DNA from: Alphaproteobacteria bacterium | Lineage (GTDB): Bacteria > Pseudomonadota > Alphaproteobacteria > UBA6615 | Assembly (NCBI GenBank): GCA_965261975.1 | Contig: CBDHEC010000024.1 | Coordinates: forward strand, 43,700 to 107,699 | Reading direction: 5' to 3' | Length of the DNA: 64,000 nt | In this document: piece by piece, positions 5,991 through 45,427 of the stretch | Numbering within the stretch: the stretch's first letter is position 1 | How the letters are laid out: the number at the start of each line of letters is the position of its first letter | Position numbers and translations under genes: made by a program | Notes under the pieces: model-generated | Databases searched by the model: none | Seen by the model: only the letters and a program-made list of their open reading frames with translations | What the model was told of the DNA's origin: nothing

Positions 5991-6014
5991 ACAGCGACAC
6001 CGAGCAATAAGCCC

Positions 6015-6046
6015 GCCCGTCGGTCGCAATCCTGCGACCGATGGGC
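6015..6046 (+). terminator. Stem-loop downstream of korB (terminator or mRNA-stabilising hairpin)
   Basis: GCCCGTCGGTCGCA-ATCC-TGCGACCGATGGGC inverted repeat with one G-U-type mismatch. No poly-U tail. Confidence 0.5.
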
Positions 6047-6119
6047 GCGGCGCCTTGCCCCCATCTCCATGACGCACCAGATTGACCCTGCACCGGATGC
6101 GGGCAACTGACGCGAGATC

Positions 6120-8657: not shown

Positions 8658-8669
8658 GAACTTGGTACG

Positions 8670-21392: not shown

Positions 21393-22196
21393 TCACCCGT
21401 CTGCCTCATCCGTCAGCGCGACGGCGAAATCGGCCATCACCTGCAACACGCCCTCGGTCGCATCACGGTGCGGCGTGTGACCGCAGTCGGGCACCATCAC
21501 GGCGTCGACCGGGCCCGCAGATTGTCGTCCGATGGCCGCGGGTTGGGCTTCGGTCCCGTATTCGTCGTCGACGCCCTGGATGACAAGGGTCGGACAGCCG
21601 ATCGCCGGCAGATACTCCTCGATGTTCCAGTCGCGAAAGGCCGGGCTGAGCCAGATGTCGTTCCAGCCCCAGAAGGTCTTGTCGCCGTCGGTGTGGCGGC
21701 GCGCGATGCGCGCCGGGAGATCGGTGGTCTCGTAGGCCGTCTTCGCATCCTCGATGCCGGCGATGCTCGCATCCTCGACGAAGAAATGCGGCGCCTCGAG
21801 GATCAGGCCGCGCACGGGCCATTGCCCGGCCCCGGCGTGGATCGCCGCAATCGAACCGCCGTCGCTGTGACCCACCAGGATCACATCATCGAGATCGAGG
21901 GCGTCGCGGATCACCGGCAACGCCTCCAGGGCCTCGTGATGCATGTAGTCCACGCCGCGCGGCGCCTCCAGCACATCCGAGCCGCCATAGCCGTAGCGGG
22001 AATAGACCAGCGCGGGCAGGCCGGTTGCCGCCGTGACCAAGGCCGGGAAATCCCGCCACAGACCGGCCGATCCCAGCCCTTCATGGAGGAAGATCAGCGC
22101 CGGGCTCTCGCCGTCATGTTCGGCCGTCCAGTAATATTCGAGGCAGCGTCCCGCTGCGGTCAGGTGCTGCATGTCCGGGATGGCGGCAATCGACAT
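21393..22196 (-). CDS. Alpha/beta hydrolase, divergent from boxC
   Basis: FLHEGLGS, nucleophile elbow GHSDG, QGVDDEYG, CGHTPH. Start set at ATG 22196. Confidence 0.88.
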   Translation of the reverse strand: MSIAAIPDMQHLTAAGRCLEYYWTAEHDGESPALIFLHEGLGSAGLWRDFPALVTAATGLPALVYSRYGYGGSDVLEAPRGVDYMHHEALEALPVIRDALDLDDVILVGHSDGGSIAAIHAGAGQWPVRGLILEAPHFFVEDASIAGIEDAKTAYETTDLPARIARRHTDGDKTFWGWNDIWLSPAFRDWNIEEYLPAIGCPTLVIQGVDDEYGTEAQPAAIGRQSAGPVDAVMVPDCGHTPHRDATEGVLQVMADFAVALTDEADG

Positions 22197-22309
22197 CGCC
22201 AAGTTCCTTTCGGGTCTCGCCAATTCGTTGGATATACCGACTATTGGGTTCACAAAGTGATGGGCTTGGATTACTGTTCTAGCGGCAAACAGGAGGGGAA
22301 AGCGATCCC

Positions 22310-23965
22310 ATGATCGCCTTTGAAACACACCCGGAACGCTACCGGCACTGGCAGCTTTCGATCGACGGGCGGGTTGCGACCCTCACCCTCGCCGTGGACG
22401 AGGCCGGCGGGCTGGCGCCGGGCTATGAGCTCAAGCTCAACTCCTATGATCTGGGTGTCGATATCGAGTTGTATGATGCCATTCAACGCTTGCGTTTCGA
22501 ACACCCGGAAGTGGCCGCGGTGGTGGTCACCTCGGCCATGGACCGGGTGTTCTGCGCCGGGGCCAACATCCCCATGCTCAAGGCCTCCAGCCACGACCAT
22601 AAGGTGAATTTCTGCAAGTTCACCAACGAGACCCGCAACGCCATCGAGGATGCGAGCGAAAACTCCGGCCAGGCCTATATCTGCATGGTCAACGGCACGG
22701 CCGCGGGCGGCGGCTATGAACTCGCGTTGGCCTGCGACGAAATTTTGCTGGTCGACGACGGGTCGAGCGCGGTCTCCCTGCCGGAGGTGCCCCTGCTGGC
22801 GGTGCTGCCGGGCACCGGCGGGCTGACCCGGGTGGTGGACAAGCGCCATGTGCGCCGCGACCGGGCGGATTTCTTCTGTACCACCGGCGAGGGCCTGCGT
22901 GGCAAGCGCGCGCTCGAATGGAAGCTCGTCGACGCACTGGTGCCCCGCTCGAAACTCGAAGAAACACTCGCCGCGCGAACTGCCGAACGTACAGATACCT
23001 CGGACCGCCCGGCGGACGGCGCGGGCGTGGAACTTACCGCGCTCACGCGAGATATTTCCGATGCCGAGCTCACCTACCCCAACCTCACGGTCGCGCTGGA
23101 CCGGGAGACACGCACCGCGACCTTCACGGTGCGCGCGCCCGAAAACGCCCCGCCCGAAGACATCGACGGCATTCACGCGGCGGGCGTGGGGTTCTGGCCC
23201 CTGGCGATCGCCCGCGAGCTCGATGACGCGATCCTGCATCTGCGGTTCAACGAGACCGAAATCGGCACCTGGGTGTTCCGCACCGAGGGCGACGGCGAAC
23301 TTGTCGCGGCCCATGACGCCGCGCTGCTGGAACACGCCGACGACTGGCTGATCCGCGAGATCACGCTTTATCTGCGACGCACCCTCAAGCGCATCGACGT
23401 GTCCGCCCGCTCCCTGCTGGCGCTGATCGAGCCCGGCTCATGTTTCACCGGCACGTTGCTGGAGCTCGCGCTCGCCGCCGACCGGTCCTACATGCTCGAC
23501 GGTGCGTTCGAGGAAGACGGCTCGAACCTGCCGCCCGCAACCATCGCGCTGACCGGCATGAACACCGGTCCGCTGAAGATGTGCACGGGCCTCACCCGGC
23601 TGCAAACACGTTTCTACGGCGACGACGACGCCCTGGCCGCCGTCGAGGCCGAAATCGGCACCGCGCTGGAGGCGGTCGACGCCGAGGCGCTCGGCCTGGT
23701 CACCTTCGCGCCCGACGACATCGACTGGGAGGACGAGGTTCGCCTGGCCATCGAGGCCCGCGCCGCCTTCTCGCCCGACGCGCTGACGGGCATGGAAGCA
23801 AGCCTGCGCTTCCCCGGGCCCGAGACCATCGAGAGCAAGATTTTCGCGCGCCTGAGCGCGTGGCAGAACTGGATATTCCAACGTCCCAACGCCGTGGGTG
23901 ACAGCGGCGCGCTGGAGCTCTTCGGCACCGGCAAACAACCCGAATATGACCGCAGGCGGGTGTGA
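22310..23965 (+). CDS. boxC: 2,3-epoxybenzoyl-CoA dihydrolase
   Basis: Double crotonase fold; GYELKLNSYDLGVDIEL, HKVNFCKFTNETRN, LPEVPLLAVLPGTGG, AWQNWIFQRPNAVG. Confidence 0.96.
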   Translation: MIAFETHPERYRHWQLSIDGRVATLTLAVDEAGGLAPGYELKLNSYDLGVDIELYDAIQRLRFEHPEVAAVVVTSAMDRVFCAGANIPMLKASSHDHKVNFCKFTNETRNAIEDASENSGQAYICMVNGTAAGGGYELALACDEILLVDDGSSAVSLPEVPLLAVLPGTGGLTRVVDKRHVRRDRADFFCTTGEGLRGKRALEWKLVDALVPRSKLEETLAARTAERTDTSDRPADGAGVELTALTRDISDAELTYPNLTVALDRETRTATFTVRAPENAPPEDIDGIHAAGVGFWPLAIARELDDAILHLRFNETEIGTWVFRTEGDGELVAAHDAALLEHADDWLIREITLYLRRTLKRIDVSARSLLALIEPGSCFTGTLLELALAADRSYMLDGAFEEDGSNLPPATIALTGMNTGPLKMCTGLTRLQTRFYGDDDALAAVEAEIGTALEAVDAEALGLVTFAPDDIDWEDEVRLAIEARAAFSPDALTGMEASLRFPGPETIESKIFARLSAWQNWIFQRPNAVGDSGALELFGTGKQPEYDRRRV

Positions 23966-23969
23966 GACC

Positions 23970-25388
23970 ATGAAAGCCAACTACAACGAAATGATCCCCA
24001 ACAACGTCAACCTCGGCGACGACCGCCGTCTGTTGCGCGCGCTGGAACGCTGGCACCCGGCCTATATCCAGTGGTGGAAGGACATGGGGCCGGTCGAATC
24101 CACCGACTTCGATGTCTATCTGCGCACCGCCATCAGCGTCGACACCGACGGCTGGGCCATTTTCGATCATGTGAAGATGCCCGACTATCGCTGGGGCATC
24201 TTCCTCGCCGAACCCGGCCCCGAGCGGAAGATCGCCTTCGGCGCCCACAAGGACGAACCGGTCTGGACCGAAGTGCCGGGCGAGTACCGCACCGAGCTGC
24301 GCCGCCTGATCGTTACCCAGGGGGACACCGAGCCCGCCTCGGTGGAGCAGCAACGCCAGCTGGGCCGGACCGCGCCGTCGCTGTATGACCTGCGCAATCT
24401 CTATCAGGTGAACGTCGAGGAAGGCCGCCATCTGTGGGCCATGGTCTATCTGCTGCATGCCTATTTCGGGCGCGACGGACGCGAGGAGGCCGACGAGATG
24501 CTCGAGCGCCACGCGGGCGACCCGGACCGGCCGCGGATCCTCCAGGCCTTCAACGAGCAGACCGACGACTGGCTGTCGTTCTTCATGTTTACCTATTTCC
24601 AGGACCGGGACGGCAAGTTCCAGCTGGCCGCGCTCGCCGAGTCCGGCTTCGACCCGCTGTCGCGGACCTGCCGCTTCATGCTGACGGAAGAGGCCCACCA
24701 CATGTTCGTGGGCGAGACCGGCGTGATGCGTGTCCTGCAGCGGACCTGCGAGCTGATGCGCGAGCATGACACAGAGGATGTGCGCCCCTTCGGCGGCATC
24801 AACCTCGACACCATCCAGAAATGGATCAACTTCCACTATTCGATCTGCCTGGATCTGTTCGGCTCGGAACGCTCGACCAATGCCGCGAACTACTTCTCCA
24901 TGGGCCTCAAGGGGCGCTACCAGGAGACGAAACTCGACGACGACCACAAGCTCGACGGCGAACAGATGGAAATCGCGAAGGTGACCGAGGACGGCGACAT
25001 CGACAGCGAGACCATCTCGGCGCTGACGGCGATGAACCTGAAGCTGCGCCAGGACTACACCACCGACAGCCAGCGCGGGCTCAACCGCTTCAACAAGATG
25101 ATCGCCGCCCATGACGTCGACGTCAAACTCACCCTGCCCGATGAGAAGTTCAACCGCTCGATCGGCATCTATTCGGCCATCGAGGCGACCCCGGAGGGCG
25201 AGCTCATCTCGGCCGAGGAATGGTCCAATCGCAAGGCGGCATGGCTGCCGACGGACGAAGACAAGGCCTATGTGAATTCGTTGATGGTGCCCGTCACCGA
25301 GCCGGGCAAGATGGCCAGCTGGATCGCGCCGCCCAAGCGCGGCATCCACGGCCGGCCCATCGACTTTGAGTATGTGCTGTTTCACTGA
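23970..25388 (+). CDS. boxB: Benzoyl-CoA 2,3-epoxidase di-iron subunit
   Basis: IPNNVNL, VYLRTAISV, QGDTEPASVEQQ, NVEEGRHLWAM, DRDGKFQL, LTEEAHH di-iron motifs. ATG at 23970. Confidence 0.96.
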   Translation: MKANYNEMIPNNVNLGDDRRLLRALERWHPAYIQWWKDMGPVESTDFDVYLRTAISVDTDGWAIFDHVKMPDYRWGIFLAEPGPERKIAFGAHKDEPVWTEVPGEYRTELRRLIVTQGDTEPASVEQQRQLGRTAPSLYDLRNLYQVNVEEGRHLWAMVYLLHAYFGRDGREEADEMLERHAGDPDRPRILQAFNEQTDDWLSFFMFTYFQDRDGKFQLAALAESGFDPLSRTCRFMLTEEAHHMFVGETGVMRVLQRTCELMREHDTEDVRPFGGINLDTIQKWINFHYSICLDLFGSERSTNAANYFSMGLKGRYQETKLDDDHKLDGEQMEIAKVTEDGDIDSETISALTAMNLKLRQDYTTDSQRGLNRFNKMIAAHDVDVKLTLPDEKFNRSIGIYSAIEATPEGELISAEEWSNRKAAWLPTDEDKAYVNSLMVPVTEPGKMASWIAPPKRGIHGRPIDFEYVLFH

Positions 25389-25399
25389 GCGGTGATGCC

Positions 25400-26967
25400 A
25401 TGACCAACAACACCGTCACCGTCGACATGTCGACCAGCCCCGCGACCCTCACCTATGCGGACCGGTTCAACGTGGCCGTGCCTTTCATCGACCGGCATCT
25501 GGCCGAGGGCCGGGGCGAGAAGGTGGCGATCCGGAACGACGACGGCGACACGACCTACGCCGCACTGGCCGAGGCGGTAAACCGGGCGGGCAATGCGCTG
25601 GCCGACCTGGGCCTCGCGCAAGGCGACCGGGTGATCCTGGCCATCAAGGACAGTCCCGCCTTCTTCTTCGCCTTCTGGGGCGCGATCAAGGCGGGCTTCG
25701 TGCCCGTGCCCGTGAACACGCTGCTGCGCGCGGGCGACCACCAGTTCATCATCGAGGATTCGGGTGCCGCCTGCGTGATCTGGTCGCCGGAATTCGCCGA
25801 GACCATGCAGCCGGCAATCGCCGCGGCGGCCCCGGCCCATAACTTCCCGACCGAGGGCGCCGACGACAGCCTCGCCGCGCGCATGGCCGCGGCCTCATCC
25901 GAACTTGAGGCCGCCCCCGCCACAGCCGATGCCGACTGCTTCTGGCTCTACACGTCCGGTTCCACCGGCACGCCCAAGGGCGCTGTCCATGCCCACCGGG
26001 ACATGGTGGTGACCAGCCAGTATTACGGGGTCGAGACCCTGGGCATCACGGCCGACGACATTCATTTCTCCGCCGCCAAGCTGTTCTTCGCTTACGGGCT
26101 CGGCAATGCCATGACCATGCCGCTGTGGACCGGCGGCCAGGCGGTGCTGTTCGCCGGGCGGCCGACGCCGGACATCATGGCCGACCATATCGAACGCTAC
26201 CGCCCGACGCTCTATTACGCGGTGCCCACCCTGTTCGCCGCCCAGCTCCACGCACTCGAGGCGGGCGACGCGGACTTCTCGAGCCTGCGGGCGTGTGTCT
26301 CGGCGGGCGAGCCCCTGCCCGCCACGTTGTTCGAACGCTGGCGCGACCAGACCGGCCTCACCATCCTCGACGGGATCGGCACGACGGAGATCCTGCACAT
26401 CTTCATCGGCAACGGCCCCGACGATGCCAAGGCGGGGACCAGCGGCAAACTGGTGCCCGGCTACGAGGCGCGGATCGTCGACGACGCGGACCAACCCGTC
26501 GCCACGGGCGAGATCGGCAACCTGCTGATCCGGGGCGATTCCGTGACCTCGCGCTACTGGAACCAGCCCGAGCGCACGGCCGCGGCCATCACCGACGGCT
26601 GGATCCGCACCGGCGATTCCTACTCGCTCGACGACGACGGCTACTTCACCTGCCAGGGGCGCAGCGACGACATGCTCAAGGTGGGCGGCATCTGGGTCTC
26701 GCCGGTGGAGATCGAGGCGCGGCTGGTCGCCCATGACGCGGTGCTGGAAGCCGCGGTCATCGGCCGGCCCGACGACGAGGAACTGATCAAGCCCGAGGCG
26801 TTTGTGATTTTGAAGGATGCCGGCGACGCGTCGGACACGCTCGCGGAAGACCTCAAGACCTTCTGCCAGGAAGAGCTCGCTCGCTACAAGTACCCGCGCT
26901 GGGTGCATTTCGTGGACGAGCTGCCGAAGACCGCGACGGGGAAAATCCAGCGGTTCAAGCTAAGGGG

Positions 26968-26971
<4 letters not shown>
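25400..26971 (+). CDS. Benzoate-CoA ligase family acyl-CoA synthetase
   Basis: FWLYTSGSTGTPKG, SAAKLFFAYGLGN, SAGEPLP, DGIGTTEILHIF, LPKTATGKIQRF. Confidence 0.93.
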
Positions 26972-27668
<697 letters not shown>

Positions 27669-27669
<1 letters not shown>

Positions 27670-28445
27670 CAGCCCGCCTCCTCGCTTGCGTCATCGCCGA
27701 GATAGGCCGCGCGCACCGACGCGTCGTTGCGAATTTCTTCCGGCGTGCCCGTGGCGATCGCCTTGCCATACACCAGCACGGTGATCCGGTCGGCGAGCGC
27801 AAACACCGCATCCATATCGTGCTCGACCAAGAGCATCGTGTAGTCGCCCTTCAGCGCCTTGAGGAAGTCGATCATCCCCTGGCTCTCCTCGGGCCCCATT
27901 CCCGCCATGGGTTCGTCGAGGAGCAGGAAGGTCGGGTTGGTCGCCAGCGAGATCGCGATCTCGAGCTGGCGTTGCTCACCATGGGCGAGGTTGCCGGCGG
28001 TCACGTCCATCCGGTCAGCCAGGCCGACACGCTCGAGGAGGTCCCGCGCGGGCCCGCGCAGGCTCTCGTCGCGCGCGGCGGGCCGCCAGAAGCGGAAGCT
28101 ATGCCCCTGCCCGGCCTGGACGGAAAGCATGACATTCTCCAGCACCGTGAAGTCGCGGAAGATGCTGGTGATCTGAAACGACCGGGCCAGGCCCTGGTTT
28201 ACCCGGGCGGGGGCCGACAGGCGGGTGATATCGCGGCCCTCGAACAGGATTTCGCCCCCGTCGGGCTTCATGATGCCCGAGAGGAGATTGACGAACGTCG
28301 TCTTGCCGGCGCCGTTGGGACCGATGACCGCATGGATCTCGCCGCGGGTGGCCTCCAGCGACAGGTTGTCGGTCGCGACCAGGCCGCCGAAGCTCTTCTG
28401 CAGGCCGCGGGCCTCCAGGCTTATGCTCGCGCGCGCATCATTCAT
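27669..28445 (-). CDS. ABC transporter ATP-binding protein (LivG-like)
   Basis: GPNGAGKTT, LAHGEQR, LLLDEPMAG, VEHDM. Confidence 0.93.
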
Positions 28446-29394
28446 CGCGGGATGACCTCGGCGTCAGCAGCCCGTGGATGCCGCCGCGCGCGAACAGCAC
28501 GACCAGCACCAGGAACGGCCCGAAGATGATGTGCCAGTGGATCGTCCAGGTGGACAGGATCTCCGACAGCATGAGGAAGACGAAGGCCCCCGTGACCGGG
28601 CCGAACAGGGTCGACATGCCGCCCAGCACCACCATGAAGATGAGCTCGCCCGAGCGCGGCCAGTTCATCATGTCGGGCGAGACGAAACGCTCGAAATTGG
28701 CCTGCAGCAGCCCGGCAATGCCGCACATCACCCCGGCGATGACGAAGGCGGTGAGGCGGTATCGGTAGGTCGAGACACCGACCGCCTGGACGCGCGTGTC
28801 GTTGGATTTCGCCGCCCGCATGACCACGCCGAAGCGGGAATGGATAATCTTCCAGCTGATGAACACGCTCGCCACCAGGAACGCGAAGATCGTGTAGTAC
28901 ATGGTCAGCTTGTCGTTCAGATCGAAGAAGCCGAGCCCGAAGTCGCTGCGCGAGAGAATGTTCAGCCCGTCGTCGCTGCCGTAGCGCTCCGCGCTGACGC
29001 TCAGGAAGAAGATCATCTGGGCGAGCGCAAGCGTAATCATGATGAAATAGACACCGCGGGTCCGCAGGCTGATCGCGCCGAAGATGAGCGAGATCATGGC
29101 GCAAAGCCCGATGGCCACCGGCCACTGGATCCACGCACTGGTGATGCCATGGAAGGCGAGGATGCCGATCGTGTAGCCGCCGATCCCCAGATAGACCGCA
29201 TGACCGAAGCTGATCATGCCGCCATAGCCCATGATCAGGTTGAGGCTGACCGCCGCAATCGCCCAGATCATGATCCGCGCGAAGACGATGACATAGAAGG
29301 GCTCGCCCAGCGCGGGTGCGAGGAAGGGCACGACCGCGAACAGGGCGATCACGATGACGGTCAGGATGTTCGCCGGGTTTTTCAGGTTCTCCAT
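28438..29394 (-). CDS. ABC transporter permease (LivM-like)
   Basis: GYGGMISFGHA, RTRGVYFIMITLA, MVVLGGMS. Confidence 0.92.
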   Translation of the reverse strand: MENLKNPANILTVIVIALFAVVPFLAPALGEPFYVIVFARIMIWAIAAVSLNLIMGYGGMISFGHAVYLGIGGYTIGILAFHGITSAWIQWPVAIGLCAMISLIFGAISLRTRGVYFIMITLALAQMIFFLSVSAERYGSDDGLNILSRSDFGLGFFDLNDKLTMYYTIFAFLVASVFISWKIIHSRFGVVMRAAKSNDTRVQAVGVSTYRYRLTAFVIAGVMCGIAGLLQANFERFVSPDMMNWPRSGELIFMVVLGGMSTLFGPVTGAFVFLMLSEILSTWTIHWHIIFGPFLVLVVLFARGGIHGLLTPRSSRDE

Positions 29395-29399
29395 GGCCC

Positions 29400-30323
29400 C
29401 TACCCCGCGCCCTTGGGCGGGAAAAGGCCCTGGGGCCTGAAGAACAGGATCGCGGCCATCAGGATGTAGATCATCATCGATGACAGGGCCGGCCCGGCGG
29501 ATTCCGCCGCGTTTTCCGGCAGGAACAGCAGCAGGAACACGTCGAGGAATGACCGCCCCATCGTGTCGATCACGCCGGTGACGATGGAGGCGATGAAGGC
29601 GCCGCGGATCGAGCCGATGCCGCCGATCACGATCACCACGAAGGCAAGAATGAGTACATCCTCACCCATGCCGATCTGGGCCGCGGTGATGGGGGTGATG
29701 ATCAACCCGGCGAGGCCGGCCAGCACGGCGCCGATGCCGAAGACGATGGAGAACAGCAGCGGGATGTTGACGCCCAGCGCGCCCGCCATGGTGCGGTTCG
29801 ACGCACCCGCGCGGATCAGCATGCCGATCCGGGTGCGGGATACGAGGATATAGAGGCCCAGCGCGACCAGCAGGCCGATGACGATGATGACGATCCGGTA
29901 GACCGGATAGGTGATCGCGCCCAATGCGACCGAGCCATCGAGGAATGCCGGCAACGGCACGACGAGGCCCTCCGGGCCCCAGATCAGGCGGGTCGCCTCG
30001 TTGAAAAACAGAATGAGACCGAAGGTGGCCAGCACATGGTCGAGATGATCACGCGGATAGAGCGTCCGCAGGGTAGTCATCTCGACGACGATGCCGATGA
30101 TCAGCATGGCCGGGATCATCACGATCACGCCGATGATGAAGGAGCCGGTGAGCAGGGCGATGGAGCCACCGACGAAGGCGCCGATCATGAACATCGACCC
30201 GTGGGCCAGGTTCACCAGGTCCATGATCCCGAACACCAGGGTCAGCCCTGCCGCCATCAGGAACAGGATGATCCCGAGCTGAAACCCGTTCAGGAATTGT
30301 TCGGTGAGGAGGACGTAATCCAT
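29400..30323 (-). CDS. ABC transporter permease (LivH-like)
   Basis: AAGLTLVFGIMDLVNLAHG, FVVIVIGGIGS. Confidence 0.92.
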   Translation of the reverse strand: MDYVLLTEQFLNGFQLGIILFLMAAGLTLVFGIMDLVNLAHGSMFMIGAFVGGSIALLTGSFIIGVIVMIPAMLIIGIVVEMTTLRTLYPRDHLDHVLATFGLILFFNEATRLIWGPEGLVVPLPAFLDGSVALGAITYPVYRIVIIVIGLLVALGLYILVSRTRIGMLIRAGASNRTMAGALGVNIPLLFSIVFGIGAVLAGLAGLIITPITAAQIGMGEDVLILAFVVIVIGGIGSIRGAFIASIVTGVIDTMGRSFLDVFLLLFLPENAAESAGPALSSMMIYILMAAILFFRPQGLFPPKGAG

Positions 30324-30357
30324 CGCGCCCTAGCAGCTAACGGCAGCGGACATGCAA

Positions 30358-30381
30358 GCGGGGATGCCTACGCATCCCCGC
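30358..30381 (-). terminator. Intercistronic hairpin after the substrate-binding protein gene
   Basis: Perfect inverted repeat GCGGGGATGC-CTAC-GCATCCCCGC between the SBP and permease genes, the usual site of an mRNA-stabilising or attenuating stem-loop. Confidence 0.65.
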
Positions 30382-30406
30382 CCACAGGTTTCAGATAGCC
30401 GTGTGC

Positions 30407-31579
30407 CTACATCTTGCACTGGCTGGCATAGGGGTCCTGATGATCGGTCAGAACCGCACGGCCCACGGCGGTGGTCCAGTTGCCTTCGGCATCCTTGACC
30501 ACGGTTCGCTCGTAGAAGTTCTGGATGGGGAAGTGATTGTTGCCCATCTTGAAGTCACCGCGGATCGAATCGAAGTCTGCCTTCTTCAGCGCGGCGCGCA
30601 TCCCGTCGGTATTGCCGATATCGCCGCTCACGGCCTCGACCGCCGACTTGATGAACATGATCGAGTCGTAGCTCTGCGCGGCATAGAAGGACGGGTAACG
30701 CCCATACTTCTTGCGGAAGTCGCCAACGAACTTCTTGTTCGCCGCATTGTCCAGATCAGGTGCCCAGAACTGGGTCATCTTGGTGCCCAGCACGGTCTCC
30801 ATGCCGGCCTTCTGGAACAGCGGCAGGCTGATCGAATCCAGCGTGTAGACCGAGTAGAGCGGCACCTGGCCCTCGAGCCCCGCCTGCTGATACTGCTTGA
30901 TGAAGGCCGGTCCGGCCGGACCAGGATAGAAGGTGAAGACACCGTCCGGCTTGGCCGCCTTGACCTTGGACAGCTCGGCCGACCAGTCCCGCTGGGACGG
31001 CCAGACGGTCATGTCCTTGCCGACGACCTTGCCCTTGAAGGTGCGTTCGACGCCCGCGACCATGTTCTGGCCGGCGGCATAGTTCGGCGCGACCAGGTAG
31101 AGGGACTCGACCCCCTGCTGGTTGAGCAGTTCACCGAGCGCCATCGGGGTCTGGTCATTCTGCCAGGCGATGTTGAAGAAGTTCGCATTGCACTGCGCAC
31201 CGGCGAGCGGCGACGGCCCCGCATTGGCGCTGATCAGGATCTTGTCGGCGTTGAGCACGACGGGTGCAGAGGCAAGCAACACGTTCGACCAGATGTAACC
31301 GGCGACGATGTCGACATCGTCGCGCAACACCAGGCGCTCGGTCGCTTGTTTGCCTTTCTGCGAATTGAACTCATCGTCAGCGTAGACGATCTCGACATCC
31401 TCGCCGGCCATCTTGCCACCGATATGTTCCATCGCCAGTTCGACGGCATCGCGCATGTCCTTGCCGATGACCGCCACGGGCGTCGTCAGCGTGGTCACGA
31501 AACCGATCTTGATATCCGCAGCAGCCGGTGACGCCAGAAGCGTCAGGGCCGTGGCTGTTCCCAGTAATTTCTTGAGCAT
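30407..31579 (-). CDS. ABC transporter substrate-binding protein, probably for aromatic acids
   Basis: Signal peptide MLKKLLGTATALTLLASPAAA, IKIGFVTTLT, GYIWSNVL, ISANAGPS. Adjacent to benzoate-CoA ligase. Start set at 31579. Confidence 0.9.
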   Translation of the reverse strand: MLKKLLGTATALTLLASPAAADIKIGFVTTLTTPVAVIGKDMRDAVELAMEHIGGKMAGEDVEIVYADDEFNSQKGKQATERLVLRDDVDIVAGYIWSNVLLASAPVVLNADKILISANAGPSPLAGAQCNANFFNIAWQNDQTPMALGELLNQQGVESLYLVAPNYAAGQNMVAGVERTFKGKVVGKDMTVWPSQRDWSAELSKVKAAKPDGVFTFYPGPAGPAFIKQYQQAGLEGQVPLYSVYTLDSISLPLFQKAGMETVLGTKMTQFWAPDLDNAANKKFVGDFRKKYGRYPSFYAAQSYDSIMFIKSAVEAVSGDIGNTDGMRAALKKADFDSIRGDFKMGNNHFPIQNFYERTVVKDAEGNWTTAVGRAVLTDHQDPYASQCKM

Positions 31580-31667
31580 TTTCAACTCCTCCCTAGAGAT
31601 TTTCCCTATGAGACCATATCGCCCGACCGATGGAAAGCGCCGTGCGTGTCCGTCTTTCGGGGGAGTT

Positions 31668-32069
31668 CTATTTTTGCGGCAAAACCGCTGTCGCCTCGAT
31701 CTCGACTCGCGCGCGATCTTCCACCAGCGCGGACACCTCGACGACCGACATGGCGGGGAAATGACGGCCCATGACCGACCGGTAGAACCCACCAACCCCC
31801 TTTGGGTTCTCCAGGTAAGCCTGCTTGTCGGTCACGAACCATGTCAGGCGGGTGATATGTTCGGGAAGGCCACCCGCCTCGGCCAGGACCGCGCGCACAT
31901 TCTCCAGCGCCTGGCCGACCTGGGCGGCGAAATCGTCGGTCTCGAAGTGACCCGTCTCGGGGTTCCAGCCAATCTGGCCGCCGACAAATACGAGGCGCCC
32001 CGTCGCCGCCATGCCGTTGGCATAGCCTTTCGGCGGCACCCAGTTTTCCGGTTGAAGAATCTCGATCAT
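31668..32069 (-). CDS. RidA/YjgF family protein
   Basis: LQPENWVPPKGYANGMAA, FVGGQIGW, MGRHFPAMSVVEVSALVEDRARVEIEATA. Start set at 32069. Confidence 0.9.
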   Translation of the reverse strand: MIEILQPENWVPPKGYANGMAATGRLVFVGGQIGWNPETGHFETDDFAAQVGQALENVRAVLAEAGGLPEHITRLTWFVTDKQAYLENPKGVGGFYRSVMGRHFPAMSVVEVSALVEDRARVEIEATAVLPQK

Positions 32070-32078
32070 CGCGCTTGA

Positions 32079-32111
32079 TATTTCATCTCTATATATTTTA
32101 ATTCTAAAATA
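32079..32111. promoter_or_regulatory. AT-rich divergent promoter with palindromic operator(s), probably for the adjacent MarR
   Basis: Perfect TATTTTA-ATTC-TAAAATA at 32094-32111 and an imperfect TATTTCA-TCTC-TATATAT at 32079-32096. Confidence 0.6.
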
Positions 32112-32137
32112 ATAATAGAGCGGAGCACAAGCGTAGG

Positions 32138-32917
32138 ATGACCACACCCCTGGACGGGAAACTGGCGATTGTTACCGGCGGCGGGCGCGGCATCGGCCGC
32201 GAAATCGCGCTGGCCCTCGCCAAGCGCGGCGCCAATATCGCGCTGCTCGGCCGTACCGAGCGCAGCCTCAAGGAGACCGCCGTCGAGATTCGCCTGCAGT
32301 CCGAGGTCTCGCCCCATGTGCATACGCTCGACGTCACCAACGGCGATGGTGTCGTGCAGACGTTCACGGAGCTGATCGCCGAACTGGGCCCACCCGCCAT
32401 CCTGGTCAACAACGCGGGTGGTGCCGAGAGCACACCGTTCACGCGGCTCGACCGGGAAAGCTGGGACGGAGCATTGGCTCTCAACCTGACCAGCGTCTAC
32501 GCCTGCACGCACGCGGTCCTCCCCGCCATGCTCGACGCAGGCTATGGGCGAATCATCAACATCGCATCGACCGCGGGGCTGGAAGGCTACCCCTATGTGG
32601 CCGCCTATTGCGCCGCCAAGCACGGTGTCGTCGGCCTGACCCGGTCGCTGGCGCTTGAAGTCGAGAACAAGGGAATTACCGTCAACGCCGTGTGCCCCGG
32701 CTATACGGACACCGAAATGCTGCAGGCGGCCATCCGCAAGATCGCCGCGACCACCGGCCGGTCCGAAGCCGACGCGCGCGACGAACTCGCGGCCGCCAAC
32801 GCCGGCGGGCGCCTGGTCCAGCCGGGTGAAGTTGCGGAGATGGTCGCAGCCCTGTGCGGCCCGGCGGCGAAAACGGTGACAGGACAGGCGATTGAAATCA
32901 CCGGCGAGGATTCGTGA
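32138..32917 (+). CDS. SDR family oxidoreductase (3-hydroxyacyl-CoA/3-hydroxybutyrate dehydrogenase-like)
   Basis: TGGGRGIG, NNAG, NIASTAG, YCAAK, AVCPGYTDT. Confidence 0.92.
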   Translation: MTTPLDGKLAIVTGGGRGIGREIALALAKRGANIALLGRTERSLKETAVEIRLQSEVSPHVHTLDVTNGDGVVQTFTELIAELGPPAILVNNAGGAESTPFTRLDRESWDGALALNLTSVYACTHAVLPAMLDAGYGRIINIASTAGLEGYPYVAAYCAAKHGVVGLTRSLALEVENKGITVNAVCPGYTDTEMLQAAIRKIAATTGRSEADARDELAAANAGGRLVQPGEVAEMVAALCGPAAKTVTGQAIEITGEDS

Positions 32918-33411
32918 TGCCCGACGGCGTTCCTCAAGGTGATCTCGAGACAGGCCTGACGGCCGACGATCGGCTCGACCTGCGGACCTGGTTGCGCCTG
33001 ATGACCTGCACCAACATGATCGAGGGTGAAGTCCGCGCCCGGTTGCGCAGCCGTTTCGACATTTCAATCGCCCGCTTCGACTTGCTTGCCCAGCTCGACC
33101 GGGCGAATGGCGGCCTCACCATGGGCGAACTGTCGCGTCGCCTGATGGTCACCAACGGCAACGTCACATCGCTGATCGATCGCCTCGTCGAGGAGAAGAT
33201 GGTCACCCGGCGCCCGGACCCGAACGACAGGCGGGCGCAGATCATCGAGCTCACGCCCGGCGGCGCACGGGCCTTCGCGAAGATGTCGGATGCCCATGCC
33301 GACTGGATCAGCACGCTCTTCGAGGGTGTCGACCGGAGGAGCCTCGAAGCGCTCTATCGTAATCTCGCCCAGCTCAAGGCGTCCCTCGCCACCACCAACG
33401 AGGACAGCTGA
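32914..33411 (+). CDS. MarR family transcriptional regulator
   Basis: LRTWLRL, RFDLLAQL, GLTMGELSRRLMVTNGNVTSLIDRL, DPNDRR. Confidence 0.92.
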   Translation: MMPDGVPQGDLETGLTADDRLDLRTWLRLMTCTNMIEGEVRARLRSRFDISIARFDLLAQLDRANGGLTMGELSRRLMVTNGNVTSLIDRLVEEKMVTRRPDPNDRRAQIIELTPGGARAFAKMSDAHADWISTLFEGVDRRSLEALYRNLAQLKASLATTNEDS

Positions 33412-33413
33412 TC

Positions 33414-34874
33414 ATGTGGCGCCCGCCCGAACGTATCCGCTGGGAGCCCGACCCCGGGGAATGGCCGGCCGCAGACGAAGCCGGCGCCGCGATGCTGTTC
33501 CAGCCGGTTGATATCGGCCCCATCGCGCTGGATTCCCGCACCTGGGTCCCCGCCATGGTGCCATGGCGGGCAACCGGCGAGGGCGAGGTGACCGACAATG
33601 TGCTCGACTGGTATGGCCGCTTCGCGCGCGGGCGCCCCGGCGCCATCGTCGTCGAAGCGACGGGCATCCGGGATATTCCCTCGGGGCCGCTGTTGCGGAT
33701 CGGAGATGATCGCTACATTCCCGGACTGACCAGGCTCGCCGAGACCGTCCGCCGGGAGAGCGACGGCCACACGAAGCTGTTTATCCAGCTGATCGACTTC
33801 CTCGCCGTCCGCCGCCGCCCCGACCCGGCAAAATATTTCGAGCGATTCCTCGCGATCACCGACCGGCACCGCGATGCATTGAATGCAAGTGACTGGCCCG
33901 AAGAGACAATCCGCACCCACCTGGCGGGCCTGCCCGAGGACGAGCTCGCCGATGTGCTCACCCCGCGCGAACGCGAATCCCTGCACCAGGGCTACCGCGA
34001 GCGGGTGACCGATACCGACCTGCCCCAGATCGCCGAATTGCCCTTCGTCCTGCCCGGGCTGTTCGCCGATGCCGCCCGGCGCGCGCGCGAGGCCGGGTTC
34101 GACGGGGTCGAGCTGCATTACGCCCACGCCTACACCATGGCCTCGTTCCTCTCGGCCCTGAACACCCGCGCGGACGGCTATGGCGGATCGCGCGAGAACC
34201 GCGCGCGGCTGCCGCTCGAGGTGTATGCCGCCGTGCGCGCCGCCGTGGGCGAGGATTACGTGGTCGGCACGCGGTTTCTGGCCGAAGACTGCATCGACGG
34301 CGGCAACGAGGTCGTGGATGCCGCCTATTTCGGGTCGGCGTTTGCGCGCGCCGGCTTCGATGTGCTGTCGCTATCGCGCGGCGGCAAGTTCGAGGATGCC
34401 AAGCGGCCGGCGGTGGGCCAGGCGGCCTATCCCTACACGGGCCCCAGCGGATACGAGTGCATGCCGCAATATATCTCCGACGCGCGGGGGCCGTTTGGCC
34501 GAAACATCGAGCCCGTGTCGGCGATCCGCAAGGCGGTGCGCGACGCGGGCTGCGGTACGCCGGTGGTCCTGACCGGCGGCATCCACGGGTTCCGCCAGGC
34601 CGAGGATATCCTGCAGGCGGACCAGGCCGATATCATCGGCTTCGCCCGCCAGAGCCTCGCCGACCCGGACTGGTTCCGGAAGGTCCGCGGCGGTCATGGC
34701 GGGGCGGTCCGGGTGTGTGAGTACACGAACTACTGCGAGGCACTGGACCAGAAGCATGTGCCCGTCACCTGCCAGCTGTGGGACCGGAAAAACCTGGACG
34801 AACCCGGCATCGCCAAGACGGAAGACGGCAAGCGGCGGTTGGTCGCCCCCGAATGGGAGCCGAACGACAGCTAG
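33414..34874 (+). CDS. NADH:flavin oxidoreductase (Old Yellow Enzyme family) with a large insertion
   Basis: LFQPVDIG, AGFDGVELHYAHAY, NTRADGYGGSRENRAR, ARQSLADPDW, C-terminal CEYTNYC-x11-C. Confidence 0.88.
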   Translation: MWRPPERIRWEPDPGEWPAADEAGAAMLFQPVDIGPIALDSRTWVPAMVPWRATGEGEVTDNVLDWYGRFARGRPGAIVVEATGIRDIPSGPLLRIGDDRYIPGLTRLAETVRRESDGHTKLFIQLIDFLAVRRRPDPAKYFERFLAITDRHRDALNASDWPEETIRTHLAGLPEDELADVLTPRERESLHQGYRERVTDTDLPQIAELPFVLPGLFADAARRAREAGFDGVELHYAHAYTMASFLSALNTRADGYGGSRENRARLPLEVYAAVRAAVGEDYVVGTRFLAEDCIDGGNEVVDAAYFGSAFARAGFDVLSLSRGGKFEDAKRPAVGQAAYPYTGPSGYECMPQYISDARGPFGRNIEPVSAIRKAVRDAGCGTPVVLTGGIHGFRQAEDILQADQADIIGFARQSLADPDWFRKVRGGHGGAVRVCEYTNYCEALDQKHVPVTCQLWDRKNLDEPGIAKTEDGKRRLVAPEWEPNDS

Positions 34875-36964
34875 CGGGTGAAGCTGCCGCCCTCGGCTAC
34901 CAGACGCTCCAGCAGGGGCGACGGGGCCCAGAGTTTGCCGTGAACCTTCTCGAACGCCTTGATCTGGTCGAGAATCTCGCCCAACCCGATCTCATCGGCC
35001 ATGAACATGATGCCGCCGCGCCAGCGCGGGAAGGCGAAGCCGTAGAGCCACATCACATCGATGTCCGAGGCGCGGCTGGCGATACCCTCGTCGAGAATCT
35101 TGGCCCCCTCGTTGATCGCCGCGTACAGACAGCGCGCGCGGATCTCGTCGTCGGAGATATCCCGGCGTGCGATGCCCTGCTCCTTCGCCACGGCCGCCGC
35201 GACGCCCTCGACCTCCGGGTCGGGCTGCGGCCGCCGCCCGCCCTCTTCATAGGCATACCAGCCCTGCCCGGCCTTGATGCCGAATCGGCCGAGCTCGCAC
35301 ATCCGGTCGGCCAGATGCATGTAGCGCGCATCCGGATCGCGTTGATCGGCGAGGGACTGGCGCATCCGCCAGCTCACATCGAGGCCTGACAGGTCGCTCA
35401 CCGCGAGCGGGCCCATGGGCATGCCCAGATCGGTCAGTACCTTGTCCACCTGGGCCGGTGACGCCCCCTCCTCGACCAGGAACGTGGCTTCCCGGACCAG
35501 CGGAAGACGCGAGCGGTTGGCGACGAAGCCATGGCAGACGCCCGCCAGCACGCCGACCTTGCCGGTGCGCTTGGCCAGCGCCATCCCCGTGGCGATGGCG
35601 TCGGGCGCACAGTTCGCCGGGCGCACCACCTCGAGCATGCGCATCACGTTGGCGGGTGCGAAGTAATGCAGGCCGATGATGTCTTCGGGCCGCGACGTGG
35701 CCGCCGCGATGGCATCGATATCCATATACGACGTGTTGGTGGCGAGGATCGCACCGGGCTTGGCGACTTTCTCCAGGGCACCGAAAATCTGCTTCTTCAC
35801 GTCCATATCCTCGAACGCGACCTCGATGACGAGGTCGGCGTCCGACAGGGCGCCATAGTCCAGCGCACCGGAAATGCGTCCGAGGCGTTCGTCCTTCGTG
35901 GCCGTGTCGATCCGGCCCCGCGCCACCATCGCCTCGTAGAGCTTCGCGATCTCGGCCAAAGCCGCATCCAGCGCCTCCTGGCCGGTCTCGACGATGGTCA
36001 CGGGGAGGCCCGAATCCGCCAGGCTGATGGCGATGCCGCGGCCCATGGTGCCCGCGCCGATCACGCCTGCACTGTCGATCGGACGCGGGGCAACATCCTT
36101 GCCGATGTCGGGAATCTTCGCCGCCTCGCGCTCGGCGAAGAAGGCGTAGCGCAGGGCTGCCGACTGGCCACTCGTCTTGCAGGCCTCGAACCGCACACGG
36201 TCCGCCGCCACCGCATCCGGGTACGGCATGCGCAGCCCGTCGATGACGCTCTCGATGGCCTGATGGGGCGAATCCTGGCCGCGAAAGCGACGGTTGGCGA
36301 GGTCGCGATATTTCTCGATGGTCTCGGCATGTTCCTCCGGCGAGCCGATCCCGTTTTGCGGTTCGCTGGAGATTTGGCGCGGCGTGCCGTCGGACAGGAT
36401 CTTCTCGGCAAACGCGACGGCTCCGTCGCGCAGATCGCCTTCGATGATTTCGTCGATGATCCCGTATTCGAGCGCCTTGGCGGCCCCGACGGGTTTTCCC
36501 AGAACGATCAGCTCGAGCGCGTGGTCCAGCCCGGCCACCCGCGGCAGGCGCTGTGTCCCGGCCGCTCCGGGAAATATCCCGAGATTGACCTCGGGCGTGC
36601 CGACCCGCGCGCTCGAAGACGCGACGCGGAAATGACAACCCAGGGCCAGCTCCAGCCCGCCGCCGAGCGCGGTCCCGTGGATCGCGGCGACGATGGGTTT
36701 CTCGATGTCGTCGAGCCGGTCGATCACCGTCATCAGATGGGGTTCGCGCGCCGGCTGGTCGAACTCTCGGATGTCCGCGCCGGCGGGAAACGTGCGCCCC
36801 GCGCCGATCAACACGATGGCCTCGACGGATGCATCGGCAACCGCACGTTCCATCCCGGCGACGATACCCTCGCGCACCGCGTGACCCAGCGCGTTGACCG
36901 GCGGGTTGTCGATGGTCAGGACAGCGACCCGTCCCGCGATCTCATAGCTCACAACGTCACTCAT
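34871..36964 (-). CDS. Bifunctional enoyl-CoA hydratase / 3-hydroxyacyl-CoA dehydrogenase (FadB/PimF-like), copy 1
   Basis: DNPPVNAL, FPAGADI, ALGGGLELALGCH, GAGTMG, ATNTS, GLHYFAPAN. Start set at 36964. Confidence 0.92.
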   Translation of the reverse strand: MSDVVSYEIAGRVAVLTIDNPPVNALGHAVREGIVAGMERAVADASVEAIVLIGAGRTFPAGADIREFDQPAREPHLMTVIDRLDDIEKPIVAAIHGTALGGGLELALGCHFRVASSSARVGTPEVNLGIFPGAAGTQRLPRVAGLDHALELIVLGKPVGAAKALEYGIIDEIIEGDLRDGAVAFAEKILSDGTPRQISSEPQNGIGSPEEHAETIEKYRDLANRRFRGQDSPHQAIESVIDGLRMPYPDAVAADRVRFEACKTSGQSAALRYAFFAEREAAKIPDIGKDVAPRPIDSAGVIGAGTMGRGIAISLADSGLPVTIVETGQEALDAALAEIAKLYEAMVARGRIDTATKDERLGRISGALDYGALSDADLVIEVAFEDMDVKKQIFGALEKVAKPGAILATNTSYMDIDAIAAATSRPEDIIGLHYFAPANVMRMLEVVRPANCAPDAIATGMALAKRTGKVGVLAGVCHGFVANRSRLPLVREATFLVEEGASPAQVDKVLTDLGMPMGPLAVSDLSGLDVSWRMRQSLADQRDPDARYMHLADRMCELGRFGIKAGQGWYAYEEGGRRPQPDPEVEGVAAAVAKEQGIARRDISDDEIRARCLYAAINEGAKILDEGIASRASDIDVMWLYGFAFPRWRGGIMFMADEIGLGEILDQIKAFEKVHGKLWAPSPLLERLVAEGGSFTR

Positions 36965-37081
36965 ATCCGTCCCCTGATTCCCGCATACGCCTGTGCTAAT
37001 TCTGTGGTCTAATTTCATTCCAGGCGGCAGTGACCAATATGATGCGCAGACCCGCGCGGCCGGTCAAACGGAGCAAGAAAA

Positions 37082-37564
37082 TTGTCTCATTACGGACACC
37101 CCGATGAATTTCTCGACAAGGTCGGCCAAGAACTCGGCGTCAGCGACTGGGTCCTGATCGACCAGGCGCAGATCGATGCCTTCGCCGAGGTCACCAACGA
37201 CCATCAATGGCTGCATGTGGACCCCGAGCGCGCCGCGACCGAAATGCCCACCGGCACGACGATTGCCCATGGCTTCCTCGTGCTGTCGCTGATCCCGGGG
37301 CTGAGCTACCCGTTCTTCCAGGTCGACAACCTCGCCCACACCATCAATTACGGGCTCAACAAGGTGCGCTTCACGGCCATGGTGCCGGTCAACTCGCGGG
37401 TCCGCCTGCGCCAGTCCCTGGCCAGCGCGGAGAAGCGCCCCGACGGCAGCGTGCATCTCGTCCTCGACGGCGTCATCGAACTCGAAGGCAGCGAACGGCC
37501 CGCCGTGGTCACCCAGACCGTCCGCCTGCTGTTCCCCGAACCCATCGGGGCCACCTCACAATGA
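37082..37564 (+). CDS. MaoC-family (R)-specific enoyl-CoA hydratase
   Basis: IDAFAEVTNDHQWLHVDP, TIAHGFLVLSL, NYGLNKVRF. TTG start. Confidence 0.9.
   Translation: MSHYGHPDEFLDKVGQELGVSDWVLIDQAQIDAFAEVTNDHQWLHVDPERAATEMPTGTTIAHGFLVLSLIPGLSYPFFQVDNLAHTINYGLNKVRFTAMVPVNSRVRLRQSLASAEKRPDGSVHLVLDGVIELEGSERPAVVTQTVRLLFPEPIGATSQ

Positions 37565-43291: not shown

Positions 43292-43295
<4 letters not shown>
42954..43295 (-). CDS. Antibiotic biosynthesis monooxygenase (ABM) family protein
   Basis: [49 protein letters not shown] overlaps the stop of the upstream dehydrogenase. Confidence 0.88.
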
Positions 43296-44530
<1,235 letters not shown>

Positions 44531-44635
44531 CTCTTCCCCCGGGAACAGGCCAACGAGCATTCCATCGTCCGAGCGGGTGCCGAACGTTGTGACTTCGCCT
44601 AGGATACCGGCATTGGAGTGAATAGGGGAATCGTC

Positions 44636-45409: not shown

Positions 45410-45427
45410 TCCCGGGCGTTGCCCCGC

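Follow-up and report, generated by a model that had tools for sequence, protein, structure and literature searches.

The canonical box cluster, as found in Azoarcus/Aromatoleum evansii and Burkholderiales, is composed of boxR-boxC-boxB-boxA together with boxD, a benzoate-CoA ligase gene and an alpha/beta hydrolase gene. A second type of coenzyme A (CoA)-dependent cluster, abm, was reportedly described by Schuhle et al. in 2001 for the aerobic 2-aminobenzoate metabolism of Azoarcus evansii and is said to have the gene content assumed for it here. Elements of both types lie side by side in the locus of this study, which is part of a 64,000-nucleotide stretch (the window; positions 43,700 to 107,699 of contig CBDHEC010000024.1, assembly GCA_965261975.1) from a marine alphaproteobacterium of the UBA6615 lineage. 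The locus carries boxC, boxB and an aryl-CoA ligase gene, a five-gene ATP-binding cassette (ABC) importer, and a four-gene module that encodes a RidA-like protein, a short-chain dehydrogenase/reductase (SDR), a MarR-family regulator and an old yellow enzyme (OYE)-family protein of 486 residues (OYE486). The initial annotation read this arrangement as a hybrid pathway in which the OYE serves BoxB in place of its reductase BoxA. We consider it likely that the locus instead consists of a clade-typical, reductase-less box cluster beside a remnant of an abm-type cluster that is still under selection. These are two separable units, since the box core is found throughout the order and the four genes in some loci only. 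Unit 1 spans 21393-31579, probably together with the fadB and maoC genes at 34871-37564, and Unit 2 (31668-34874, ridA <> SDR-marR-OYE486) would be the remnant of a cluster of abm type (2-aminobenzoyl-CoA / salicylyl-CoA).

Family scans against NCBIfam and Pfam revealed the gene order hydrolase <> boxC-boxB-ligase >< five ABC genes-ridA <> SDR-marR-OYE, such that every gene named in the initial annotation was found in its place, as was the 11-bp spacer (25389-25399) by which the ligase gene follows boxB with no boxA between them. BoxB was found to match Azoarcus BoxB (3PER) over its full length at 675 bits and to span positions 2-470 of the 471 positions of the TIGR03225 profile. Its EEGRH, DRDGKFQ and EEAHH stretches, which we take to be the iron-ligand stretches of BoxB, are identical or nearly so to those of 3PER. 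When the window genes were compared to six loci of the same genus, dN/dS was 0.04-0.11 for boxB and 0.04-0.17 for the box genes as a group. Judged by its sequence, the box cluster is probably a working, clade-typical variant and no relic.

The genome of the window (a 3.03-Mb assembly in 59 contigs, 94.6% complete) was searched for the partners that are missing from the locus. The best BoxA match (TIGR03224) in this genome scored 29.5 bits compared to a cut-off of 459, and BoxD (NF008868) had zero matches. No match to BoxR was detected in the genome at E <= 1e-3 by tblastn with the Mycetohabitans regulator as the one query and no family model, and nothing scored over the cut-off for AbmA (NF006101). 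Thus, boxA, boxD, boxR and abmA, for which the initial annotation had advised a genome-wide search, are all missing beyond the window too. Its statements that the window holds no aldehyde dehydrogenase, thiolase or BoxR-type regulator, and that no AbmA-type flavin monooxygenase is present at the locus, also hold: neither an aldehyde dehydrogenase nor a thiolase was found on the contig of the window, and OYE486 alone matched NF006101 inside the window. The full-length aldehyde dehydrogenases of the genome are two, of succinate-semialdehyde and methylmalonate-semialdehyde type. A dedicated second aryl-CoA ligase was not found in the genome, the best match being the box ligase itself at 38-40% identity. 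Two separate genes of the genome each resemble one half of AbmA. The first, on contig C41 (8285-9412), encodes a 375-residue flavin adenine dinucleotide (FAD) monooxygenase with 412-413.8 bits to NF006101 positions 1-382 and adjoins a 3-keto-5-aminohexanoate-cleavage-like gene; the other, on contig C47 (7833-8951), encodes an OYE with 361.6 bits to positions 386-746 and adjoins a carnitine-dehydrogenase-like gene.

The BoxA-less state was examined in an order sample of 46 species genomes (one family) and in a class sample, an even draw of 401 genomes at a completeness of >=90%. Within the order, BoxB scored over its cut-off in 36 of the 46 genomes and was matched in 38, and BoxA scored over its cut-off in none of the 46, the best weak scores being 63.9 and 44.8 bits. 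In the class sample BoxB was detected in 81 of 401 genomes, a count that includes the unpublished genome G251, which was excluded afterwards; the class tests for BoxA and BoxD were made on 77 BoxB-positive genomes outside the order of the window. BoxA was over cut-off in 12 of these 77 and each time lay beside boxB, by which we conclude that the BoxA search works; it was missing in the other 65. BoxD was found in 13 of the 77 (missing in 64) and in one of the 46 order genomes. Thus, the absence of BoxA is the rule in the order and class of the window and is not peculiar to this locus. The sole BoxD gene of the order (genome G019, C45:290051-291598, 785 bits) is located 4.4 kb from boxB (C45:296043-297452) in a genome that is BoxA-less.

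In a quick maximum-likelihood tree, calculated from 55 BoxB sequences, those of the order fell into one supported clade (33 rows, SH-aLRT [Shimodaira-Hasegawa-like approximate likelihood-ratio test] 95), all of them BoxA-less, and the BoxA-positive rows were scattered, such that at least three changes are forced. When the window proteins were compared with 34 boxB loci of the order, the arrangement pyrC-hydrolase<>boxC-boxB-ligase><ABC was found to recur in most of them and to be nearly universal, and this recurrence argues that the arrangement is not due to chance. In three genomes of the order (G015, G009 and G017; loci L053-L055) BoxB is of another type, which shares 57-59% identity with that of the window and groups with BoxA-linked sequences of other families although these three genomes are BoxA-less; this divergent type may represent a separate acquisition. 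Several relatives have an extra gene in the gap between the ligase and ABC ATPase genes, which is absent from the window (Table 1). A hidden reductase gene was considered for this gap and rejected, as the extra gene was found to encode a 316-residue alpha/beta hydrolase with an HGGGW stretch, which we read as a fold-3 esterase type.

By contrast to the box core, ridA<>SDR-marR-OYE was present between the binding-protein gene and fadB in only some of the 34 order loci. OYE486 orthologues (>=72% identity, full length) were detected in 13 of the 46 order genomes, and OYE486 was missing in 23 of the 36 with BoxB over cut-off. BoxB-positive complete genomes that lack it include G036, G041 and G042 of the same genus as well as G012, G016, G005 and G032-G034. 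In genomes without the four-gene module fadB directly abuts the binding-protein gene, and the box core is unaltered. In G041 and G036 exactly the equivalent of window 31666-34870 is missing, and the 88 bp that precede the binding-protein gene are kept. G035 still has some 250 nt from the 3' end of ridA, after which homology resumes at 34852; this junction is a deletion scar.

A likely origin of the four genes emerged from the 20-kb surroundings of 17 OYE486 orthologues. Seven of the 17 loci have the order ridA<>SDR-marR-(ECH-ACAD)-OYE-ligase2-751-residue protein or a variant of it, where ECH is an enoyl-CoA hydratase, ACAD an acyl-CoA dehydrogenase and ligase2 a second aryl-CoA ligase. The TIGR02262 score of this ligase is 378 bits, and PRK08258 is matched by the hydratase. 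The 751-residue protein of G018, the one that was scanned, scored 1142 bits to NF006101 compared to a cut-off of 1078 and is thus of AbmA/salicylyl-CoA 5-hydroxylase type. The statement of the initial annotation that RidA, SDR and MarR proteins of these types accompany AbmA is borne out by these seven loci. The full order was detected in G018, G008 and G004, and the same order minus ligase2 in G021; in these four genomes, all of the family of the window, the cluster sits at the equivalent position, with the binding-protein gene on one side and fadB on the other. Outside this family G108 and G131 have the order too, and G385 has a rearranged form of it. The RidA-like protein, SDR, MarR and OYE486 of the window are 55-76% identical to their counterparts in G004 and 64-85% identical to those in G018, and the four genes are orthologous to the cluster genes of these genomes in the same slot and order. 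Of the 46 order genomes, 8 have an AbmA-type enzyme, but it was absent from all 12 that belong to the genus of the window, and the four-gene module without AbmA was present in 8 of the 12 species of this genus. The genus would thus have lost ECH, ACAD, the second aryl-CoA ligase and the 751-residue AbmA-like monooxygenase/reductase and kept the four-gene core with its operator.

The genes that were kept are under purifying selection. In the comparison with the six same-genus loci (dS 0.4-1.7 for the four module genes), the dN/dS ranges were 0.03-0.08 (ridA), 0.13-0.18 (SDR), 0.12-0.24 (marR) and 0.09-0.13 (OYE), similar to the values of boxB, boxC and the ligase gene. Complete as well as truncated abm-type clusters have kept a palindrome, ATATTTTAA-N-TTAAAATA, between ridA and the SDR gene; when up to 3 mismatches were allowed, a single match to it was found in the window, compared to 0 expected. 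Based on the low dN/dS and the conserved palindrome, the four genes are maintained and probably still MarR-controlled. Extension of this control to the box genes, by a shared MarR operator before boxC, was considered and rejected, as the palindrome occurs once in the window and not upstream of boxC. Between ridA and the binding-protein gene are 88 bp with no terminator-like site, and the module promoter may read into the ABC operon.

To relate OYE486 to BoxB in other genomes, the class sample and the neighborhoods of OYE486 were surveyed. The OYE486 family has at least 574 loci among species-representative genomes, at 63-74% identity, in Alpha-, Beta- and Gammaproteobacteria, Acidobacteriota and Myxococcota; the best 80 of these loci, from other species, were examined within a radius of 8 kb. 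None of the 80 loci had boxB or boxC within this distance. AbmA was found in 13, ACAD in 19, ridA in 18, SDR in 17, ECH in 16 and marR in 20 of them, and thus the abm context is the commonest recognizable context of OYE486, although not its sole one. A common partner outside abm clusters was sought and not found, the non-abm neighbors being mixed (amidohydrolase, luciferase-like monooxygenase, major facilitator superfamily transporter, Rieske oxygenase, SDR and thioesterase). In the class sample OYE486 was present in 19 of the 401 genomes, of which 13 have BoxB (all BoxA-less) and 6 do not. In the 11 BoxB-positive genomes with OYE486 outside the order, the two genes lie on different contigs or 1.8 Mb apart, and an OYE486 orthologue was missing in 54 of the 65 BoxA-less, BoxB-positive class genomes (present in 11). 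Thus, OYE486 is not a general stand-in for BoxA, and its recurrent partners are abm-type genes, not boxB. The profiling of the OYE against BoxA-less boxBC, which the initial annotation had proposed as a check, revealed no linkage elsewhere, the outcome it had named beforehand as speaking against its own reading. Of the hybrid reading, the absence of BoxA, BoxD, BoxR and AbmA and the kinship to abm clusters stood, and the replacement of BoxA by the OYE did not.

OYE486 was found to consist of a flavin mononucleotide (FMN) barrel with two insertions and a cysteine tail like those of FadH and trimethylamine dehydrogenase (TMADH), with no NAD(P)H or FAD domain. No NCBIfam model reached its cut-off, the best being BaiCD at 162 of 825 bits. 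Among 14 orthologues the mean identity is 80% and C349, C435, C441 and C453 are invariant. The tail aligns with the [4Fe-4S] motif of histamine dehydrogenase (3K30), trimethylamine dehydrogenase (1DJQ) and FadH (1PS9), with C435, C441 and C453 at the first, third and fourth motif positions and an invariant Thr at the second; OYE486 thus has three of the four cysteines of the C-x2-C-x2/3-C-x11-C motif. An AlphaFold2 model had a pLDDT (predicted local distance difference test) of 73.6, with a confident barrel and low-confidence cysteine loops, and its Foldseek neighbors were OYE ene-reductases, 2-naphthoyl-CoA reductase (6QKG) and FadH, of which 2-naphthoyl-CoA reductase had the top query TM-score (0.57) among the matches listed. 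OYE486 is probably a truncated flavoprotein of FadH/TMADH type that carries FMN plus an iron-sulfur (Fe-S) cluster, and it would exchange electrons with an external partner and act on a CoA ester of the abm-type route. Three orthologues each have one in-frame stop (G220:C21:3222-4661, G424:C1:129476-130915 and G416:C4:493480-494931), a TAG in the case of two species from a single genus and a TGA in the remaining genome.

In the pathway proposed for Unit 1, family membership predicts that the ABC importer takes up an aromatic acid, that the ligase forms its CoA thioester, that BoxB epoxidizes the ring and that BoxC cleaves it; FadB/MaoC-type enzymes would then handle the C6-CoA product and, BoxD being absent, another aldehyde dehydrogenase would oxidize the semialdehyde. 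Since there is no dedicated BoxA, the electrons for BoxB would come from a donor encoded elsewhere, most likely a housekeeping ferredoxin with an NAD(P)H reductase, and this donor would not be dedicated to BoxB. A housekeeping FdxA-type ferredoxin is present in the genome. Flavodoxin was considered as the donor. In three BoxA-less alphaproteobacterial loci (in G265, G109 and G343), flavodoxin-like genes of one blastp cluster adjoin box genes. The one of G265, 152 residues long, lies directly downstream of boxB, that is, in the BoxA slot; its product, the only one scanned, scored below every NCBIfam flavodoxin cut-off (best MioC, 86.6 of 158 bits). Unlike these three loci, the window box cluster has no carrier gene, and flavodoxin was rejected for the window genome, as neither a PF00258 match nor a tblastn match to the box-linked flavodoxins of G265 and G109 was detected in it. 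A BenC/MmoC-type reductase encoded on contig C1 next to a PaaA-like diiron gene was also rejected, as it does not track BoxB: its orthologues are present in 27 of the 46 order genomes, including only 1 of 11 in genus g7, where BoxB is present in 9 of 11.

The surroundings of this C1 reductase were recorded separately. An operon-like run (locus L143, 3338-12811, minus strand) encodes a YbgC-type thioesterase, a tripartite ATP-independent periplasmic (TRAP) transporter DctPQM, the BenC/MmoC-like 2Fe-2S/FNR (ferredoxin-NADP reductase-like) protein (8096-9124), an SDR, a short PaaA-like diiron protein of 237 residues (85.8 bits to PaaA, below cut-off), a gentisate 1,2-dioxygenase (552 bits), a 187-residue unknown protein and the alpha subunit of an ADP-forming acyl-CoA synthetase. 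The run resembles a second CoA-dependent route that relies on a diiron oxygenase and has gentisate as its end point.

Several observations weigh against the reading of the locus as a box cluster beside an abm-type remnant. The box ligase is as near to anthranilate-CoA ligase (4WV3, 430 bits) as to benzoate-CoA ligase (2V7B, 425 bits), its best solved relatives, and because these scores are near-equal its substrate is undecidable by sequence. Since 8 of the 12 species in the genus retain the module although they lack AbmA, it must have some role, and the box ligase and ABC importer are its nearest possible partners; ridA, moreover, reads into the ABC operon across the 88-bp gap with no predicted terminator. 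As many as 50 of the 80 OYE486 loci have no abm gene within 8 kb. OYE486 is also enriched with BoxB (13 of 19 OYE-positive class genomes compared to 81 of 401 overall), and some functional link between the two is possible, but genomes of related species do not count as independent cases, and either trait is a mark of aromatic-acid degraders. Finally, an alternative donor for BoxB was not found, there being no flavodoxin and the sole oxygenase-type reductase, that of C1, not tracking BoxB, and single-electron transfer from an FMN/Fe-S protein to BoxB is conceivable in principle. We nevertheless regard a hybrid pathway as very improbable, be it one where OYE486 takes over electron donation to BoxB from BoxA or one where it reduces a dienoyl intermediate of the box route, with RidA removing an imine from an amino-substituted substrate. 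Such a role would agree with the lack of BoxA in the genome, with a Fe-S-like tail of four invariant cysteines and no NAD(P)H domain, as if built for electron exchange with a partner, with the distance of 9.5 kb to boxB, with the purifying selection on the four genes in the absence of AbmA, and with the BoxA-less state of all 13 class-sample genomes that have both OYE486 and BoxB. The distribution argues otherwise: OYE486 is missing from most BoxA-less class genomes (54/65) and from most BoxB-positive genomes of the order (23/36), outside the order it is never near boxB (0/80 loci; separate contigs or 1.8 Mb), 6 of 19 OYE-positive genomes have no BoxB at all, its recurrent neighbors are abm genes, and the candidate MarR operator was not found before boxC. 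A restricted form of the same idea, that this genus alone co-opted ridA-SDR-marR-OYE486 for its BoxA-less box pathway, with OYE486 feeding BoxB or reducing an enoyl-CoA and the Rid protein stripping an enamine nitrogen, is in our view distinctly unlikely; if true, BoxB would serve a route for anthranilate-like acids in which BoxA and AbmA are both dispensable.

A module with no donor role might still act on amino- or hydroxy-substituted CoA esters formed by the box ligase from acids taken up by a shared ABC importer. The equidistance of the ligase from anthranilate- and benzoate-CoA ligases, the position of ridA at the head of the strand that runs into the ABC genes, the retention of the module in 8 of 12 genus species at dN/dS 0.03-0.24, and the complete abm clusters that adjoin the same ABC genes in relatives, which suggests a shared importer, are all in keeping with this salvage role. 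We consider it unlikely, as the genome lacks the enzyme known to dearomatize 2-aminobenzoyl-CoA (AbmA), the box core is unchanged where the module was lost, and a passage of the review PMC4498308 describes BoxB as highly substrate-specific and inactive on phenylacetyl-CoA. That the box cluster is instead an incomplete, non-functional relic is suggested by its lack of BoxA and BoxD and by the treatment of similar clusters in PMC10803450, where, in the part on 'incomplete context' clusters, those lacking an epoxidase subunit are classed as incomplete, with a lower pathway that is undefined or non-functional; one of the 13 cases given there is alphaproteobacterial (Ferrovibrio terrae K5). This explanation is highly unlikely for the locus of the window, given its full-length BoxB and BoxC, the EEGRH, DRDGKFQ and EEAHH stretches kept in BoxB, the dN/dS of 0.04-0.17, and the recurrence of the syntenic cluster in 36-38 of 46 order genomes and of the BoxA-less state in 65 of 77 BoxB-positive class genomes.

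Table 1. Features of the box/abm-type locus (window positions) and of related loci (positions within each locus).
Feature	Location	Strand	Basis and remarks
Alpha/beta hydrolase	21393-22197	-	Pfam Abhydrolase_1 and Abhydrolase_6; divergent from boxC
BoxC	22310-23965	+	TIGR03222, 911.1 bits (cut-off 712.3), full length
boxB, oxygenase component of diiron benzoyl-CoA 2,3-epoxidase	23970-25388	+	TIGR03225, 797 bits (cut-off 499)
Aryl-CoA ligase, benzoate-CoA ligase family	25400-26971	+	TIGR02262, 608 bits (cut-off 375)
ABC ATPases (two)	26968-27669, 27669-28445	-	Pfam ABC_tran (twice), BCA_ABC_TP_C
ABC permeases (two)	28438-29394, 29400-30323	-	BPD_transp_2 (twice)
Periplasmic substrate-binding protein with signal peptide	30407-31579	-	Peripla_BP_6, 258 bits
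Rid-family (RidA-like) protein	31668-32060	-	PF01042, 83.9 bits; heads the minus-strand run into the ABC genes
AT-rich palindrome TATTTTA-N4-TAAAATA, candidate MarR operator	32094-32111	.	ridA<>SDR spacer
SDR	32138-32917	+	adh_short, 199.6 bits; no NCBIfam model at cut-off
MarR-family regulator	32914-33411	+	Pfam MarR_2 and MarR
OYE-family protein, 486 residues (OYE486)	33414-34874	+	PF00724 in three stretches
FadB/FadJ-like enoyl-CoA hydratase/3-hydroxyacyl-CoA dehydrogenase	34871-37018	-	NF008363, 440 bits, below cut-off; Pfam ECH_1, 3HCDH_N, 3HCDH; a conserved neighbor of the box/ABC unit
MaoC-like hydratase	37082-37564	+	PF01575, 77.9 bits; conserved next to fadB in the order
Extra hydrolase of the 316-residue type	L064 11543-12493; L067 11872-12822; L036 7650-8675; L051 7080-8030; L060 4742-5770		
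Flavodoxin-like genes by box clusters	L106 (G265) 8848-9306; L102 (G109) 5888-6481; L109 (G343)		

Several gene starts were assigned from the sequence itself. The hydrolase is assigned an ATG at 22197 (its longest frame extends to 22328), boxB starts 4 bp past the boxC stop, and the binding-protein gene has a start codon with a ribosome-binding site. The hydrolase is 45% identical to one annotated beside the benzoate-CoA ligase in the boxCBA cluster of Mycetohabitans, and 13 of 21 loci have a homologue of it close to boxB; it is a regular member of box clusters. The best solved relative of the binding protein is 4EVQ/4EVR (159 bits), which we take to be Rhodopseudomonas proteins that bind benzoate derivatives. 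The RidA-like protein scored 66 bits to TIGR00004, under the RidA cut-off of 106, and thus belongs to the wider Rid/YjgF family. The FadB/FadJ-like gene is convergent with the OYE gene and overlaps it by 4 bp. The locus is flanked by pyrC, hisI and a CobW-like GTPase gene on the left and by allantoate amidohydrolase and gamma-glutamyltransferase genes on the right. A second beta-oxidation set is located at 43292-47557 of the window (acyl-CoA dehydrogenase, SDR and a second FadB-like gene), the FadB-like product of which shares about 48% identity with the orthologue that G018 has of the FadB beside the OYE.

The BoxA-less state has consequences for how the pathway is counted. Surveys that score the box pathway by boxA/boxB/boxC/boxD markers, or that treat BoxA-less clusters as incomplete, as PMC10803450 does in its part on cluster contexts, would miss most alphaproteobacterial carriers when boxA or boxD is used (65 of 77 without BoxA, 64 of 77 without BoxD). 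In our literature search no paper was found that calls BoxA-less clusters the alphaproteobacterial norm. The physiological reductase of BoxB in BoxA-less Alphaproteobacteria is a testable question. For the abm side, the locus documents the stepwise reduction of a cluster, from the full cluster to a four-gene core, a ridA stump and nothing, in which the core is still selected. The steps of the 2-aminobenzoyl-CoA route after AbmA are given as proposals in the review PMC4539516, and a concrete gene set for them is provided by OYE486, the Rid protein and SDR encoded with it, and the hydratase and acyl-CoA dehydrogenase of the full clusters. OYE486 itself represents a highly conserved family not covered by an NCBIfam model, the cysteine signature of which suggests an Fe-S flavoprotein.

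Compared to the systems described at the outset, the locus combines likeness and loss. Canonical box clusters were encountered in Mycetohabitans rhizoxinica pBRH01 and in 12 alphaproteobacterial genomes. Like these, the window has BoxC and BoxB that pass their equivalog cut-offs, an enzyme of the benzoate-CoA ligase family and the alpha/beta hydrolase; unlike these, its genome lacks BoxA, BoxD and BoxR, the ligase gene directly follows boxB, and an ABC importer and FadB/MaoC genes are attached. Similarly to abm clusters and the salicylyl-CoA 5-hydroxylase clusters of NF006101, the window keeps the RidA-like protein, SDR, MarR and OYE486 as well as the shared palindrome; by contrast to them, the genome is without an AbmA/SdgC-type enzyme and its dedicated ligase, such that the four accessory genes remain. 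OYE486 resembles the Fe-S flavoproteins of FadH/TMADH type in having an FMN-binding TIM barrel followed by an aligning cysteine tail, and it differs from them in that the chain stops at residue 486, the ADP-binding and NAD(P)H domains being absent, and in having an invariant distal C349 inside a 50-residue insertion.

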